Assembly: GCA_041660485.1 (NCBI GenBank)
Contig: JBAZWF010000001.1
Location: 346,224-410,223, forward strand
Source of the DNA: Candidatus Pacearchaeota archaeon
GTDB taxonomy: Archaea; Nanobdellota; Nanobdellia; Pacearchaeales; GW2011-AR1
Direction of reading: 5' to 3'
DNA length: 64,000 nucleotides
The notes under the pieces were generated by a model that saw only the letters and a list, made by a program, of their open reading frames with translations, ran no database searches and had not been told where the DNA came from. How positions within the stretch are numbered: position 1 is the stretch's first letter; each line of letters opens with the position of its first letter. The position numbers and the translations under genes are program-made. Below are positions 5,172 through 55,646 of this stretch, piece after piece.

Positions 5172-6269
5172 ATGACAGATGCAAAATCACTTGACTTTCA
5201 AGAATTTGTAGAAAAAATTGCTAGCTTTAGAGGCCGGCATACCGAGCTAGTGACAGTGCTGATACCTGCAGAGTATAATGTTAATTCAGTTGTTCATCAA
5301 CTAGAAGGTGAAAAATCAACAGCTTCAAATATTAAATCACGAACAACACGAAATAATGTAATTGAAGCACTTGAAAAAATAGTTCGTGAATTAAAATTAG
5401 GCCCTCAAAAATATGAAAAAGGAATTGCAATTTACTGCGGAAATATTTCTCAAGTTGAAGGACAAACAGACATTCAATTTTTTTCAATAGAGCCACCACA
5501 ACCATTAAAAGTTAGAATGTATCGTTGTGATCAGGAATTTGTTTATCAACCATTAAAAGAAATGACTGAAATAAGTGAAGTTTATGGATTATTAGTAATT
5601 GAAAGAAAAGAAGCAACAATTGGTTTATTAGAAGGTACACAAATTAAAGTTCTTCATAAAATGACTTCAGGAGTTCCTGGAAAAATTAGGGCTGGAGGGC
5701 AATCATCTCAGAGATTTCACCGTGTAACAGAAGGACTTGCAAAAGAATTTTTTAGACGAGTTGCCGAAGCAATGAAAGAATATTTTTTTGATATGCCAAA
5801 ACTAAAAGGAATTTTAATTGGTGGTCCAATACCAACTAAAGAAGAATTTATTGAAGAAGGACAATTAGTCACAGCACTTAAAAGTAAAATAATTGGTGTT
5901 AAAGATATTGGCTATGCAGATGAACACGGACTTCAATTATTAGTAGAAGCAAGTAAAGATGTTCTTGCTGAACAAGAAATAACTAAAGAGAAAAAAATTC
6001 TTGAAAATTTCTTTAATACTCTTGGAAAATTCCCTGAGAAAACTGCTTATGGTTATGAAAAAGTAAAAAAAGCACTTGAAATGGGTGTTGTGCAAACATT
6101 AATACTATCTGAAAAAATTCCAAAAGAGAAAATAAAAGAATTAATAAAAATTGCAGATCAAATGAGTACTGAAATTGAAATTGTCTCTATTGAAACTGGT
6201 GAAGGAGAGCAATTTTTTAATCTTTCAGGGATTGGGGCAATCTTAAGATATGCAGCTAATTTAAATTAA
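5172..6269 (+). CDS. prf1: peptide chain release factor aRF1
   Basis: Contains the NIKS motif (TASNIKS), the YxCxxxF motif (YRCDQEF) and the GGQ motif (AGGQSSQRF). Confidence 0.9.
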   Translation: MTDAKSLDFQEFVEKIASFRGRHTELVTVLIPAEYNVNSVVHQLEGEKSTASNIKSRTTRNNVIEALEKIVRELKLGPQKYEKGIAIYCGNISQVEGQTDIQFFSIEPPQPLKVRMYRCDQEFVYQPLKEMTEISEVYGLLVIERKEATIGLLEGTQIKVLHKMTSGVPGKIRAGGQSSQRFHRVTEGLAKEFFRRVAEAMKEYFFDMPKLKGILIGGPIPTKEEFIEEGQLVTALKSKIIGVKDIGYADEHGLQLLVEASKDVLAEQEITKEKKILENFFNTLGKFPEKTAYGYEKVKKALEMGVVQTLILSEKIPKEKIKELIKIADQMSTEIEIVSIETGEGEQFFNLSGIGAILRYAANLN

Positions 6270-6678: not shown

Positions 6679-6996
6679 ATGAATAACGAAAATAACCAAC
6701 AGCCAGAACAGAAAATAAGAGTTAAACTTCCAAGAAATCGGGAAGTTATAGGTCTTATTGACCAAAGGGTTGGTGGAAGTAGAATGCTTGTTAAATGTAG
6801 TGATGGCAAGGTTAGAAACTGCAAGGTTCCTGGTAGACTTAGAAGATCTTTATGGATAAGAGAAGGAGATTATGTTATTGTTGAACCTTGGGAATTTGAT
6901 GATGAAAAAGGAGATATTTTATTTAAATATAATCCAAATGAGATTAGAATTTTAAGAGAAAGAAATCTTTTAAACGGAATTGACTCTGAATTTTAA
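6679..6996 (+). CDS. eif1a: translation initiation factor aIF-1A
   Basis: S1-like OB domain with the characteristic strings VRVKLPR..EVIG, GGSRMLVKCSDGKVR.CKVPGRLRR..WIREGD.V.V.PW. Confidence 0.85.
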   Translation: MNNENNQQPEQKIRVKLPRNREVIGLIDQRVGGSRMLVKCSDGKVRNCKVPGRLRRSLWIREGDYVIVEPWEFDDEKGDILFKYNPNEIRILRERNLLNGIDSEF

Positions 6997-6997
6997 T

Positions 6998-7474
6998 ATG
7001 AAAACACTTTTTATAAAATCTGCAAGAAAAATAATGCAGAACCAAAAAGAACTTGAAACAAAGTTAAAAGTTAAATTAAATGTTAAAGGACAAAATATTT
7101 CTATTTCAGGAAATGAAGTAAATGAATTTTTTGCTGAACGTGTTTTAATAGCTTTAGATTATCCATTTTTAGTTGAAGATGCACTTTTATTATCAGATGA
7201 AGATTATATGTTTGAGGCAATTAATATAAAAAGTCGTACCCATAGAAAAGATTTAAGTGTTATTAAGGGAAGAATAATTGGAAAAGAAGGAAAAACACTA
7301 AAAGTTTTAGAAGAGCTAACAGGAGCAATTATTGCTGTAAAAGACAATAATGTTGCAATAATTGCAAGAAGTGATAATTTTGAAAAAGCTGTGCAAGGAG
7401 TTATTTCTTTAATACAAGGAAGCAAACAAGGAAATGTTTATGCTTATCTTGAAAAAGCTAATAAAAGAATTTAA
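6998..7474 (+). CDS. KH-domain RNA-binding protein (Dim2/Pno1-like)
   Basis: KH GXXG-type core IGKEGKTLKVLEELTG. ATG at 6998 directly follows the aIF-1A stop, so the track start at 6980 is probably over-extended. Confidence 0.6.
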   Translation: MKTLFIKSARKIMQNQKELETKLKVKLNVKGQNISISGNEVNEFFAERVLIALDYPFLVEDALLLSDEDYMFEAINIKSRTHRKDLSVIKGRIIGKEGKTLKVLEELTGAIIAVKDNNVAIIARSDNFEKAVQGVISLIQGSKQGNVYAYLEKANKRI

Positions 7475-7926: not shown

Positions 7927-8048
7927 TTCATTTCATATTCCTTCTATTTTTAAGGTTTTATGTTTTTGCAGATAGTTAGTTTTATAAATACAATCAACTC
8001 CCTTTTATTGAATGCCTCGGTAGCTCAGTTGGTAGAGCACACGGCTGT

Positions 8049-8547
8049 AAGACAATAGGTTTAAAGTGAAAGATCCAAGAACTTACAAAGACAGAAGAAA
8101 ATATAACATTGAAGCTGTTTCAAGACGGAGAAAAGAAATTCGTCTTAAAGCAATTTTGCACCTTGGTGGAAAATGCATGAAATGTGGATATTCAAAATAT
8201 CCTGAAGTGTTAGAATTTCATCATAGAAATCCATTGCAAAAAGATTTCAATATATCAAGAAAAGGACATTGTAGGAGTTGGAGTAGAGTAAAAACAGAAA
8301 TTGAAAAATGCGATTTGCTTTGTGCAAATTGTCACAGAGAAACTCACGTTGAACTTAATAAGTTAGCAGCTTCTGAAAGAAATTTCAGAATGAACAGCGA
8401 GTAAATTCAGGGAAACCCTACATTAAAGATGAGGACAATCCTGAGCCAAGCCAGAAATGGAAGGTGCAGAGACTAGACACTCGCCACCTAAAGCCAAAAG
8501 CCAAGGTGATGGTATAGTCCTACCCTCTAAGTAATTGGAGAAGGTTG
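8049..8547 (+). mobile_element. group I intron (IC3-like) in the anticodon loop, between positions 35 and 36
   Basis: P1: exon GCUGU 8044-8048 pairs with the internal guide sequence (IGS) GCAGC 8366-8370, with a U8048-G8366 wobble. P10: GUUA 8362-8365 pairs with exon 2 UAAC 8548-8551. P2: 8371-8390, 8 bp with a GAAA loop. P3: 8397-8402 with 8479-8484. J3/4 is AAA. P4: 8406-8412 with 8439-8445. P6: CCA-GAAA-UGG 8451-8460. P7: 8469-8475 with 8515-8520, with one bulged A. P8: 8485-8489 with 8504-8508. The intron ends in G8547. Confidence 0.85.
8066..8404 (+). CDS. intron-encoded HNH homing endonuclease
   Basis: HNH signature CMKCG...EFHHRNP...N...CANCHRETH. GTG start at 8066, with an in-frame stop at 8048-8050 just upstream. 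The ORF lies entirely inside the intron. Confidence 0.75.
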   Translation: MKDPRTYKDRRKYNIEAVSRRRKEIRLKAILHLGGKCMKCGYSKYPEVLEFHHRNPLQKDFNISRKGHCRSWSRVKTEIEKCDLLCANCHRETHVELNKLAASERNFRMNSE

Positions 8548-8573
8548 TAACCGTGGGGTCAGAGGTCCGAGTC

Positions 8574-8587
8574 CTCTCCGAGGCGTT
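8574..8587 (+). repeat. direct repeat copy 1 (the genuine 3' terminus of tRNA-Asn)
   Basis: CTCTCCGAGGCGTT. This is the reference copy for the repeats at 9089 and 9889. Confidence 0.8.
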
Positions 8588-50907: not shown

Positions 50908-53391
50908 CTACTCCACAAAAACAGCAGGTCTTCCAGGCTTTGCTTTTCCAGACTTATTTTCAGGGTCGTATTTGACTTTATCATTTACTGCAAAAACCTT
51001 AACTTTTTTGTTTAACCTTTTTTCAAGAACTTCAATATTATAATTTGCTAATTCATTTGGAATTACATAAAGGTAAACAGCTTCACTTTCTTTTCCTTGC
51101 TTTTCTTTAATTATATTTAAAATATTTAAAACATCTGAAACAGTTTTTTCAACTGCTTGTTCTTGTGCCTCTAATTTCAAATCAATTTTCTTTTCATCAC
51201 AAACCGGCCATTTTTCAACACTCACAAATCCTTTACCATTAATTTTCTCCCATAATTCTTCTGCAATATGTGGTGCAAAAGGAGATAATAGTTCAATAAA
51301 ACTCTCTAAATCTTTTACAGCTATTTCATTTTCCCCTTCAATTGCTTCAAATAAACCGCGAAGTTTAATTATTGCAAGATTATATCTAAAATTCTCAATA
51401 TCTTCAGTTATTTCTTTAATAGTTTTATTTACCTTGCTTTCAATTCTCTTTGATGATTTTCCTTTTTTAATATTAGGAATTTTTTCAATAACTTTATTTA
51501 TAAATTTATAACTTCCAATTAAAACTTTTTCATCCCAATTTGTATCTTTATCAGGTGAAGCAAATGACATTAATGCCATTCTTAATGAATCAGCCCCGTA
51601 TTTATCAATAATCTCAATTGGATTAATTACATTTCCCAAAGATTTAGACATTTTATTTCCATCACTTCCATGCAACATTCCCTGATTAAATAATTTTGTA
51701 AAAGGCTCATCAAATTTCAAATATCCTAAATCTCTTAATGATTTTGTGAAAAATCTTGCATAAATTAAATGCATACAAGCATGTTCTGCTCCTCCAATAT
51801 ACTGGTCAACAGGCATCCAATATTCTATTTTTTTACTATCAAACGGTTTTTTTGAATTATTATTGTCACAATATCTTAAAAAATACCAAGAACTATCAAA
51901 AAATGTATCCATTGTATCTGTTTCTCTTCGAGCTTTACCTTTACATTTAGGACATTTTGTTTCAAGGAATTTTTTATTAGTTGCTAGTGGATTGCCCTTT
52001 CCAAATTCAACCTTTTCAGGCAACTCAATAGGCAATTCTTTTTCAGGAACAGGAACAACTCCACATTTATCACAATAAATCATAGGTATAGGTGTTCCCC
52101 AATATCTCTGCCTGCTAATTAACCAATCTCTTAATTTATACTGAACAACTTTTTTTCCAAGTTTCTTTTTGTTTAAATGCTCAGTTATTTCATTAATTGC
52201 ATCTTTACTATTAACTCCATTAAACTCTCTAGAATTTATCAGCTTTCCTTCACCTGTAAATGCTCTTGACATTTTCTCTGCATTTAATTCATACGAATCT
52301 GGACTTATAACAACTTTAATAAAAATCTTATACTTTTTTGCAAATTCAAAATCTCTTTGATCATGTGCAGGAACAGCCATTACCATCCCACTACCATAAT
52401 CTGCAACAACAAAATTTCCAATATAAACCGGAATTTTTTCATTTGTCAATGGATTAATAGCATAACTTCCTGTAAAAGCTCCTTCTTTTTCAAGCTCTTC
52501 CATATCTTTTTCACTTGTTGATTTAATTTTTTTCAAAAAATAATCAACTTCTGGTTTCTGTTCTTTAGTCACAAGTTCATTTAATTTCGGATGTTGTGCA
52601 GAAACAACCATAAATGTAACCCCATAAATTGTATCTGGACGAGTTGTAAATACTGGCCAATTTACACCATTTATTTTAAAATTAATTTCAGTTCCATAAC
52701 TTTTTCCAATCCAGTTTTCCTGCATTAATTTTATTCTTTCAGGCCATTGCAATTTTCCAATATCTTTTAACAATTCATCTGCATATTTTGTTGTTCTAAT
52801 AAACCATTGTTCTAAGGGTTTTATCTGAACTTCTGTATCTCCATGCCTCCAACAGAATCCATTATGCACTTGTTCATTTGCTAAAACCGTATCACATTTA
52901 GGGCAATAATTAACACTTGCTTTTTTTCTGTAAACCAAACCATTTTCAAAAAATTTTAAAAAGAAATACTGATTCCATTTATAATATTCAGGCTCACATG
53001 TAACAACTTTTCTATCCCAATCATAACTTAAACCTAAAGCCTTTTGTTGCATCATAAAGTTTTTCATAGAATTATCTGTATATTTCTTTGGATGTTCCCC
53101 TGCTTTTATTGCAGCATTTTCAGCAGGCAATCCAAATGCATCATACCCCATTGGATATAACACATTAAACCCATTCATTCTCTTAAAACGAGCATAAATA
53201 TCTCCAATTGTATAGTTTAAAGCATGCCCCATATGCAAACCTGCTCCAGAAGGATACGGAAACATCTCTAAATTATAAAATTTCTTTCCCTTTCCATCTT
53301 TAACAGAAAATACTTTTTTCTCTTCCCATTTTTTCTGCCATTTCTGTTCTAATTTAACAAAATTAATCTCTGCCATAGAAAAGGTTATCAA
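50908..53391 (-). CDS. leuS: leucyl-tRNA synthetase
   Basis: MFPYPSGAGLHMGHA (HIGH) and KMSKSLGN (KMSKS). 827 aa. Confidence 0.9.
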   Translation of the reverse strand: MITFSMAEINFVKLEQKWQKKWEEKKVFSVKDGKGKKFYNLEMFPYPSGAGLHMGHALNYTIGDIYARFKRMNGFNVLYPMGYDAFGLPAENAAIKAGEHPKKYTDNSMKNFMMQQKALGLSYDWDRKVVTCEPEYYKWNQYFFLKFFENGLVYRKKASVNYCPKCDTVLANEQVHNGFCWRHGDTEVQIKPLEQWFIRTTKYADELLKDIGKLQWPERIKLMQENWIGKSYGTEINFKINGVNWPVFTTRPDTIYGVTFMVVSAQHPKLNELVTKEQKPEVDYFLKKIKSTSEKDMEELEKEGAFTGSYAINPLTNEKIPVYIGNFVVADYGSGMVMAVPAHDQRDFEFAKKYKIFIKVVISPDSYELNAEKMSRAFTGEGKLINSREFNGVNSKDAINEITEHLNKKKLGKKVVQYKLRDWLISRQRYWGTPIPMIYCDKCGVVPVPEKELPIELPEKVEFGKGNPLATNKKFLETKCPKCKGKARRETDTMDTFFDSSWYFLRYCDNNNSKKPFDSKKIEYWMPVDQYIGGAEHACMHLIYARFFTKSLRDLGYLKFDEPFTKLFNQGMLHGSDGNKMSKSLGNVINPIEIIDKYGADSLRMALMSFASPDKDTNWDEKVLIGSYKFINKVIEKIPNIKKGKSSKRIESKVNKTIKEITEDIENFRYNLAIIKLRGLFEAIEGENEIAVKDLESFIELLSPFAPHIAEELWEKINGKGFVSVEKWPVCDEKKIDLKLEAQEQAVEKTVSDVLNILNIIKEKQGKESEAVYLYVIPNELANYNIEVLEKRLNKKVKVFAVNDKVKYDPENKSGKAKPGRPAVFVE

Positions 53392-55064: not shown

Positions 55065-55646
55065 TTAAGGCCTAAGCCATGAAATTTCATAATAGGTTAT
55101 GCTTCCTTCACTATCAACAACACCTACAAGCAAATTTTTCTTTGTTGAATGCGCAACACGATTTTTAGCTGAAAATTCATGCCATGTCAAATCCTGTGAC
55201 TCGCTAACTGCATAAAGTATCCACTTAGAATGTTCTTTTCCAGGCTTCTTACCTTTTTCATAAACTCTAAAATCTGCCCCAAATTTCAAAGCAGTTTTCA
55301 ATAAATAGCCTCTATTTCTTAAATCCTTATAAACTAAATATTTTACCTGTATTTTTTTATCAATTTGCTTACACTTTTCCATAAGCTGGCTAAAACTCAG
55401 TTTTTTTGTTTTTACAAATACTTCAATCTTTTTTCTATCAACTAAATACAAAGATTCAATTAAAGAATAATGAATTTTTCCATCAATATATTCTCCGAAT
55501 AAACTCTGACTGTATAAATCCTTTGCCCCCTGTGAACTACTTAAAATACTTTCTCCGCTAAAAATTGCTTTTATATTATTTTTCAGTTTGCCAGAATACA
55601 TTGAATTTCGAGCCTTATTTTGATTAAGTTTAGTTTGTTTTAGCAT
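55065..55646 (-). CDS. endA: tRNA-splicing (bulge-helix-bulge) endonuclease
   Basis: Catalytic-domain pattern YLVYKDLRNRGYLLKTALKFGADFRVYEKG...HSKWILYAV. Confidence 0.8.
   Translation of the reverse strand: MLKQTKLNQNKARNSMYSGKLKNNIKAIFSGESILSSSQGAKDLYSQSLFGEYIDGKIHYSLIESLYLVDRKKIEVFVKTKKLSFSQLMEKCKQIDKKIQVKYLVYKDLRNRGYLLKTALKFGADFRVYEKGKKPGKEHSKWILYAVSESQDLTWHEFSAKNRVAHSTKKNLLVGVVDSEGSITYYEISWLRP

Follow-up and report, generated by a model that had tools for sequence, protein, structure and literature searches.

An IC3-like group I intron in a native tRNA-Asn gene of a Pacearchaeota archaeon, probably of bacterial origin

Can an archaeon mature one of its own tRNAs by means of a self-splicing group I intron? 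The question is raised by a 64,000-nt stretch of DNA from a Candidatus Pacearchaeota archaeon (GenBank assembly GCA_041660485.1, contig JBAZWF010000001.1), referred to below as the window, in which a tRNA-Asn(GUU) gene is interrupted by 499 nt with the features of a group I ribozyme. In reviews and surveys, the introns of archaeal tRNA genes have all been described as spliced by proteins and the group I introns of archaea as confined to rRNA. According to Hausner et al. (2014), archaea had no known group I introns. A later survey found 39 archaeal group I introns, many of them in DPANN archaea and occurring alongside EndA-type introns (Nawrocki, Jones and Eddy, 2018; PMC6125680). These are of types IA3 and IB4, and all 39 lie in 23S or 16S rRNA; none was found in tRNA and none was accepted as IC3, two IC3 matches having been set aside as possible contaminants. 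A single split tRNA, from 'Ca. Pacearchaeota archaeon RBG_16_35_8', was ascribed to mis-binning (Williams, 2020; bioRxiv 10.1101/2020.01.27.920355). In open-access papers and preprints, no later account of a group I intron within a tRNA of archaea was found. The window is read here, with a probability of about 80%, as carrying a mobile group I intron of the IC3 kind that lies between U35 and U36 of a native Pacearchaeota (DPANN) tRNA-Asn(GUU) gene, splices itself, spreads by homing and originated in bacteria.

The split tRNA-Asn gene and its group I intron

An initial annotation of the window had proposed a 73-nt tRNA-Asn(GUU) split between positions 35 and 36, and the coordinates that it gave for the exons proved exact. 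The gene and its intron, including an open reading frame (ORF), are made up as follows.

8014..8048, + strand: tRNA-Asn exon 1, 35 nt, tRNA positions 1–35, ending ...GGCUGU (C32 U33 G34 U35); found by ARAGORN in joined and native sequence
8049..8547, + strand: group I (IC3-like) intron, 499 nt; identified by RF00028, covariation and identity to seeds
8066..8404, + strand: HNH-type endonuclease ORF, 112 aa, GTG start, AGGU 6–9 nt upstream; from the ORF list
8548..8585, + strand: tRNA-Asn exon 2, 38 nt, tRNA positions 36–73, starting UAACCG..., discriminator G73, CCA not encoded

When joined, the exons form a 73-nt cloverleaf that ARAGORN identifies as tRNA-Asn(gtt). In the native DNA, the same program reports a tRNA-Asn carrying a 499-nt intron if introns are allowed; the split gene was not seen in its default mode. 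The intron is inserted between CUGU and UAA, separating U35 from U36. A whole-window Rfam scan in gathering mode returned three ordinary tRNAs only and missed the intron because of its speed filters. A local scan with permissive filters gave a match to Rfam RF00028 (Intron_gpI) at 8346–8541 on the + strand, which covered the full model (1–253) and scored 81.4 bits (E 4.5e-21) against a gathering threshold of 50 bits. The claim of a complete group I ribozyme is thus borne out, and the following elements were assigned to it.

8044..8048, + strand: 5' strand of P1, GCUGU (G31 C32 U33 G34 U35), pairing with GCAGC at 8366–8370; U8048 is the -1 U of the 5' splice site
8362..8370, + strand: internal guide, GUUA (8362–8365, P10 with UAAC at 8548–8551) followed by GCAGC (3' strand of P1)
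8371..8390, + strand: P2, 8371–8378/8383–8390, 8 bp, GAAA loop; compensatory changes in 8 of 8 pairs
8397–8402 with 8479–8484, + strand: P3, enclosing P4, P5, P6 and P6a; covariation per helix
8407–8412/8439–8444, + strand: P4; covariation
8416–8435, + strand: P5; covariation
8446–8447/8463–8464, + strand: P6; covariation
8451–8453/8458–8460, + strand: P6a, GAAA loop
8469..8520, + strand: P7, G8469-C8520, bulged A8470, 8471–8475/8515–8519; forms a pseudoknot with P3; guanosine-binding site
8485..8508, + strand: P8, 8485–8489/8504–8508; CCUAAA...CAAGG, a variant of the 11-nt GAAA-tetraloop receptor; 4 of 5 pairs covary
8522..8547, + strand: P9.0 (8522–8524/8543–8545), P9 (8525–8530/8535–8540, GUAA loop) and terminal G8547

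All helices listed in the initial annotation (P1, P10 and P2 to P9, with the bulged A in P7 and the terminal G8547) are present, and every sequence string that it quoted occurs in the window. At the 5' splice site, U8048 and G8366 form a wobble pair. From the guide to the terminal G, the ribozyme core measures 186 nt, a short form. The minimum free energy fold of 8362–8547 yields P2, P3, P4, P5, P6a, P8 and P9, with a z-score of -2.5.

The fold is conserved in an alignment (A2) of 60 homologous ribozymes, which runs from the guide to the terminal G with four further bases on either side. Paired bases occupy 87.9% of the pairing cells, compared with 35–46% when the partners are slid by 1–3 columns, and 38 of the 49 pairs show compensatory (two-sided) changes. 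The covariation score is 0.517, against about 0.1 in the slid controls, and none of 500 shuffles matched the observed values. Covariation is rich in P2, P3, P4, P6 and P8. Five of the six pairs of P7 are invariant, and the sixth shows 13 compensatory changes from A-U to U-A. The guide GCAGC, the AGAGACU and AUAGUCC strands, the terminal G8547 and the UAA that follows it as the first bases of exon 2 are likewise invariant columns. The window copy fits all 34 invariant columns of the alignment, including those of the guide, P7 and the terminal G.

The class of the intron was judged against the bacterial tRNA-intron seed alignment in the supplement to Williams (2020). The window ribozyme is 57% identical to the Azoarcus-type tRNA-Ile seed, 58% to the Synechococcus tRNA-Leu seed, 55% to the tRNA-Arg seed, 56% to the tRNA-fMet seed and 47% to the tmRNA seed. 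With the Ile, Leu, Arg and fMet seeds (54.6–58.2% identity), it is colinear and has the same order of helices. These four classical tRNA-intron classes are listed as IC3 in the public intron database (Williams, 2020), and the comparison with them supports the term 'IC3-like' for the window intron, in agreement with the resemblance pointed out in the initial annotation. The Azoarcus tRNA-Ile(CAU) and cyanobacterial tRNA-Leu(UAA) introns share with it the insertion into the anticodon loop, the compact P2–P9 core, the GAAA loop of P2, the P8 receptor and the GNRA loop of P9, as well as the sequence blocks AAAUUC.GGGAAACC, GAGCCAAGC, GAAGGUG.AGAGACUAGAC and AUAGUCC. They differ from it in that they interrupt other tRNAs, at position 36/37 or 34/35 instead of 35/36, and contain no ORF, whereas P1 of the window intron is broken by a 317-nt loop that holds an ORF and its host is an archaeon.

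Host tRNA and insertion site were already described for bacteria, because the seed Pam37.Asn.4Ug of Williams (2020; bioRxiv 10.1101/2020.01.27.920355) represents the tRNA-Asn class of the same site. Asn.4Ug introns resemble the window intron in the tRNA that they interrupt, the insertion after the fourth base of the anticodon loop, the U at -1, the terminal G and the guide GCAGC, and at many bacterial loci a homologous HNH ORF is held in the P1 loop. A guide with GUUA and GCAGC is kept in archaeal and 'type 1' bacterial introns. However, the class was defined on bacterial genomes, whereas the window host is archaeal and its exons are of archaeal type; the window intron also lacks the extra hairpin between P7 and P3' that is found in Pam37 and most bacterial copies, and the two ribozymes are 55% identical. 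The setting, which had been called unusual, is therefore new as far as an archaeal tRNA is concerned; tRNA-Asn itself is a known and widespread host in bacteria, and group I introns of archaeal rRNA are known as well.

Most of the ORF is accommodated by the loop of P1, the 317 nt that separate the 5' splice site from the guide; its 3' end extends across the guide and P2 as far as the 5' strand of P3. Its product is identical to NCBI MFA6022894.1, from a Candidatus Pacearchaeota metagenome-assembled genome (MAG) with a contig of 856,651 bp. A CxxC..HH..CxxCH..H motif (C37, C40, H52, H53, C86, N88, C89, H90 and H94), with the zinc-binding CxxC pairs and the catalytic His/Asn/His pattern of HNH endonucleases, is invariant among 18 homologs, and in a search of PDB sequences the CxxCHRExH stretch aligned to McrA (6ghc), a weak match (E 0.022). 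The structural model of the protein, which bears on the beta-beta-alpha-metal fold expected of HNH nucleases, has a pLDDT (predicted model confidence) of 86.7. In the part of the ORF upstream of the overlap with the ribozyme, the ratio of non-synonymous to synonymous substitution rates (dN/dS) is 0.08–0.21 among the archaeal HNH copies and 0.14 against the closest relative; the HNH protein is therefore under purifying selection. Precise presence and absence of the intron, association of the protein family with tRNA-Asn genes and this range of dN/dS are indirect signs of homing, in which the protein would act as a homing endonuclease with the tRNA-Asn gene as its presumed target.

Several observations weigh against a working intron with its own endonuclease. 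In P5 of the window copy C8416.A8435 is a mismatch, and the P8 receptor has CAAGG instead of UAUGG; the canonical receptor, CCUAAG..UAUGG, is present in the archaeal relative L003 (numbers of this kind denote loci of the surveys described below) and in the Azoarcus-type seed. Position 55 of tRNAs is normally a universally conserved U, modified to pseudouridine. The T-loop of the window tRNA (8566–8572) reads UCCGAGU, with C at this position, whereas U55 occurs in seven of seven other spliced archaeal copies, of which six have UUCGAGU and L005 has UUCGAAC. A sequencing error, a change that the tRNA tolerates and decay are possible explanations of this C55. The ORF scores 16.8 bits with Pfam HNH (PF01844), below the cut-off of 21.4, and its top 29 Foldseek matches, although mostly HNH nucleases (T4 endonuclease VII, Cap5, Gme HNH and Cas9 HNH), are non-significant (E at least 0.19). 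Of the HNH endonuclease claimed in the initial annotation, an HNH-type ORF with its invariant motif stands; the assignment to HNH, which is based on that motif, the weak McrA match, a model with HNH neighbours and a sub-threshold Pfam score, is probable but weaker than had been stated.

Because of C55, the P5 mismatch and the variant P8 receptor, some weight is still given to the view that the window copy is a decaying relic, its ribozyme or tRNA or both being non-working while another tRNA-Asn on the chromosome supplies the cell. The close relative L001, which lacks P6a and the GTG start, and the frameshifted HNH gene of L029 point in the same direction. However, no invariant column of the alignment is violated in the window copy, the ORF is intact with all of its invariant residues and the dN/dS against its closest relative is low. 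C55 also occurs in the tRNA-Asn of a bacterium of the candidate phyla radiation (CPR; L053), and no second tRNA-Asn was found within the 64-kb window. A relic is therefore considered improbable, though not negligible.

Archaeal host and bacterial relatives of the intron

The initial annotation had taken the window for archaeal, and its gene content agrees. The features that bear on the host and on the position of the tRNA gene are listed here.

5172–6269: aRF1, archaeal marker in the window
6679..6996, + strand: aIF1A, Pfam eIF-1a, 74.8 bits; synteny anchor upstream of the tRNA
6980..7474, + strand: KH-domain protein; synteny anchor upstream of the tRNA
7982..7991, + strand: TTTATAAATA, element resembling an archaeal TATA box, about 28 nt before the 5' end of the tRNA; read from the sequence
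55065..55646, - strand: EndA tRNA-splicing endonuclease, TIGR00324, 111 bits

MCM and an ATP-dependent DNA ligase are also encoded in the window. EndA, which had been noted at this position before, means that the host also has a protein-based intron pathway. Upstream of the tRNA gene, the KH-protein gene is about 540 nt away and aIF1A about 1 kb. The TTTATAAATA element is a putative promoter of the tRNA-Asn gene, and a motif of the same type precedes the tRNA of L001.

Relatives of the HNH ORF are numerous. A search for homologs gave 747, and the best 120, which are 63–100% identical, carry only Pacearchaeota, Woesearchaeota or Nanoarchaeota as source names. The cluster at 90% identity has 27 members from several projects, on contigs that include ones of 413 and 867 kb. 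A survey of one genome per GTDB species found at least 513 loci with HNH relatives. Among the best 80 loci, which were examined, 12 are archaeal (59–91% identity) and 68 bacterial (50–65%), the latter from Omnitrophota, Planctomycetes, Elusimicrobia, CPR groups, Melainabacteria, Acidobacteriota, Nitrospira and others. Nearly all of the 68 bacterial loci have a tRNA-Asn interrupted at this very site, with the HNH gene within it or next to it. The split (...CUGU-intron...G-UAA...) was re-derived in 63 sequences, namely 62 of the 80 loci and the window copy. Labels of tRNA-Thr, Tyr, Ser or His that ARAGORN gave at many bacterial loci were rejected, since on re-derivation these were mostly tRNA-Asn genes with a mis-set boundary (by 2 nt in the Thr calls).

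The surroundings of the gene differ between the domains. The 12 archaeal loci were obtained by independent MAG projects; next to their tRNA-Asn and HNH genes, the KH-protein gene is found in all 12 and aIF1A in eight, and neither was found there at any bacterial locus. The spliced archaeal tRNAs have G1 and C72-G73 and their CCA is not encoded, whereas the bacterial tRNAs at the same site all have U1 and A72-G73, and CCA is often encoded. The tRNA body is thus specific to each domain, and what the two have in common is the intron alone. The suggestion that the exons are like those of bacterial tRNA-Asn thus failed, the window tRNA having G1-C72 and no CCA as in the other archaeal copies, and a transfer of the whole tRNA gene from bacteria was rejected. 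The D-arm (GUAGCUCAGUUGGUAGAGC) and the anticodon loop are nearly identical in archaea and bacteria, and they therefore offer a common target in both domains.

These observations also bear on the view that bacterial DNA has been misjoined to an archaeal contig by chimeric assembly or mis-binning. The class of the intron is overwhelmingly bacterial, and such matches were set aside as possible contaminants by both Williams (2020) and Nawrocki et al. (2018). The tRNA gene, however, stands near the KH-protein and aIF1A genes in a 64-kb archaeal window on an 857-kb contig, and the gene order is repeated in 12 MAG loci from independent projects. Its exons are of archaeal type, unlike those of every bacterial copy, and an archaeal TATA-like box lies upstream. 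Given the archaeal neighbours, the conserved synteny, the archaeal exons and the TATA-like box, a chimera, which the initial annotation had itself raised as a danger to its interpretation, is excluded for practical purposes.

The native archaeal gene therefore appears to have received an intron from elsewhere. The ribozymes of the archaeal loci are 83–96% identical to the window copy and form one clade with 92% bootstrap support. The archaeal HNH proteins also form one clade (bootstrap 63%), within which the in-intron copies are a sub-clade (44.5%). The nearest bacterial ribozyme, at L031 (L031:2776–3023; an Omnitrophota MAG from groundwater), is 75% identical to that of the window, and other bacterial copies reach at most 71%; L031 may mark the donor lineage or a back-transfer. 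The copies are far more diverse in bacteria, and those of archaea form a single tight clade; this speaks for one transfer from bacteria into DPANN archaea, and most likely the archaeal lineage arose in this way and then spread within the DPANN archaea. Two points tell against so definite a history: the bootstrap support of the HNH tree is moderate, and the direction of transfer is drawn from diversity and distribution alone. The trees are simple neighbour-joining trees, so that the direction, like the number of transfers, is something that we infer. The inter-domain origin proposed in the initial annotation is nevertheless in keeping with the bacterial majority among the surveyed loci and their shared tRNA-Asn site; that the HNH endonuclease brought about the transfer, as was also proposed, may be the case.

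A side observation concerns the leucyl-tRNA synthetase encoded at 50908–53391 on the - strand. It is of bacterial type, scoring 946 bits with TIGR00396 (leuS_bact) and 242 bits with the archaeal model, and is likely a horizontal acquisition in an otherwise archaeal window.

Gene states in archaea, bacteria and phages

At the syntenic archaeal site, the tRNA-Asn gene was found in four states.

State (a): intron-less tRNA-Asn with a free-standing HNH gene about 60 nt downstream, at L019 (2366–2836) and L020 (2382–2806)
State (b): short non-group I intron at 37/38 and a free-standing HNH gene, at L007 (2350–2815; 24 nt), L009 (1615–2068; 51 nt) and L029 (2100–2701; about 28 nt, with a second insert in the D-arm)
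State (c): ORF-less 223-nt group I intron at 35/36 and a free-standing HNH gene, at L006 (982–1680)
State (d): HNH gene inside the intron, in the window and at L001–L005 and L008

In states (a) to (c), the free-standing HNH gene is located directly downstream of the tRNA-Asn. The four states look like stages in the association of an endonuclease with an intron. Five of the 63 re-derived sequences, all bacterial (L010, L032, L054, L060 and L063), have an ORF-less intron of 242–312 nt with the HNH gene close beside the tRNA, on its upstream or its downstream side; free-standing HNH genes thus occur outside archaea too. For such a pair, an ORF-less intron and an endonuclease gene next to it, Zeng, Bonocora and Shub reportedly described 'collaborative homing' in 2009.

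Besides L001 (2484–2973), where GTT replaces the GTG start, and L029 (2333–2701), signs of decay were seen at L004 (2445–3028), which has a C.A mismatch in the anticodon stem of the tRNA. The L001 intron, with its P6a hairpin deleted, was not reported by an Rfam scan of the 12 archaeal loci.

The short introns of state (b) bring up the view that the window insert is removed by EndA at a bulge-helix-bulge motif, its likeness to group I introns being irrelevant to splicing. EndA is encoded in the window, and in sister lineages the same gene is interrupted at 37/38 by short EndA-type introns, the one in L009 forming a 4-bp helix (CUGU/GCAG) between two 3-nt bulges. In folds of the window intron junctions, however, no bulge-helix-bulge (two 3-nt bulges and a 4-bp helix) was found: a helix contains the 3' splice site, and the 5' site falls in a loop of 7 nt. 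The intron is bounded by the canonical U-1 and terminal G, and the same intron is kept, with covariation, in dozens of bacteria that lack EndA. Removal by EndA, likewise raised in the initial annotation, is therefore very unlikely.

The central helix CUGU/GCAG of the L009 intron (L009:1647–1702) is, in a separate observation, the same pairing as in P1 of the window intron (GCUGU/GCAGC; 8366–8369 in the window). The likeness may exist only because both must pair with the same loop; it bears on ideas about the replacement of one intron type by another.

The HNH family was also followed into viruses. In IMG/VR viral contigs, 535 HNH relatives were found, and the best 80 (L081–L160; 43–61% identity) are free-standing and mostly located inside phage tRNA arrays. 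A tRNA-Asn(GTT) gene lies within 300 nt of the HNH gene in 47 of these 80 loci, although Asn accounts for only 12.7% of the tRNAs there; examples of the viral loci are L088:3001–3341, L099:2995–3353, L115:568–1149 and L143:3001–3779. At two viral loci, L115 and L143, an ORF-less tRNA-Asn intron lies beside the HNH gene. Taken together, these associations link the HNH family to the tRNA-Asn gene in phages, bacteria and archaea alike.

Two known systems offer partial parallels. T4 SegB is a free-standing homing endonuclease encoded within a phage tRNA cluster (PMC2330249), but it is a GIY-YIG enzyme, and the endonuclease gene of the window lies inside an intron. The Synechocystis tRNA-fMet intron, as it is cited from Bonocora and Shub (2001) in PMC3984707, has its own homing endonuclease, I-Ssp6803I, aimed at the anticodon region. 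Its host, however, is a bacterium and its tRNA a different one. The enzyme is said to be of PD-(D/E)xK type and not HNH.

Proposed splicing and homing, and their significance

If the intron is a working mobile element, as its conserved fold suggests, transcription from the putative archaeal TATA-type promoter would yield a 572-nt precursor. In this precursor GCUGU of exon 1 would pair with the guide GCAGC, 318 nt downstream, and form P1 with the U.G wobble at the splice site. The 186-nt core (P2–P9) would then fold, and a free guanosine bound in P7 would attack after U8048. With exon 2 aligned by GUUA in P10, G8547 would move into the guanosine site and the exons would be ligated, giving a 73-nt tRNA to which CCA is still to be added. 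The catalytic activity is thus predicted from sequence and fold. Spread of the intron would depend on the 112-aa HNH-type protein, which would cut intron-less tRNA-Asn genes, after which repair would copy the intron into them.

What is new is that a group I intron is now solidly documented in tRNA genes of archaea, and that an intron of the Asn.4Ug/IC3 type occurs in a new host domain. The window locus and its 11 syntenic relatives show that the archaeal tRNA match dismissed earlier was real. The host range of tRNA group I introns is extended to a second domain, and the locus is a clear example of the passage of a mobile RNA element between bacteria and archaea, the target it entered being conserved in the two domains. 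For genome annotation, the consequence is that tRNA-Asn will be missed in DPANN genomes unless group I introns are allowed. The standard filtered Rfam scan missed the window intron, and misses of this kind are a possible reason for the under-reporting of such introns in AT-rich DPANN genomes.

The coexisting states of the gene offer a tractable system in which the association of introns with endonucleases, and the interplay of group I and EndA-type introns, can be studied. More tentatively, it is possible that DPANN archaea mature an essential tRNA by a bacterial-type self-splicing ribozyme and that the four gene states form a natural series in which an endonuclease and an intron become one mobile element. 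If this is true, the site would allow a direct test of two possible roles of EndA-type introns in archaea, as replacements for group I introns or as a protection against the endonucleases of the latter, an idea credited to Tocchini-Valentini where it is cited in PMC6125680.

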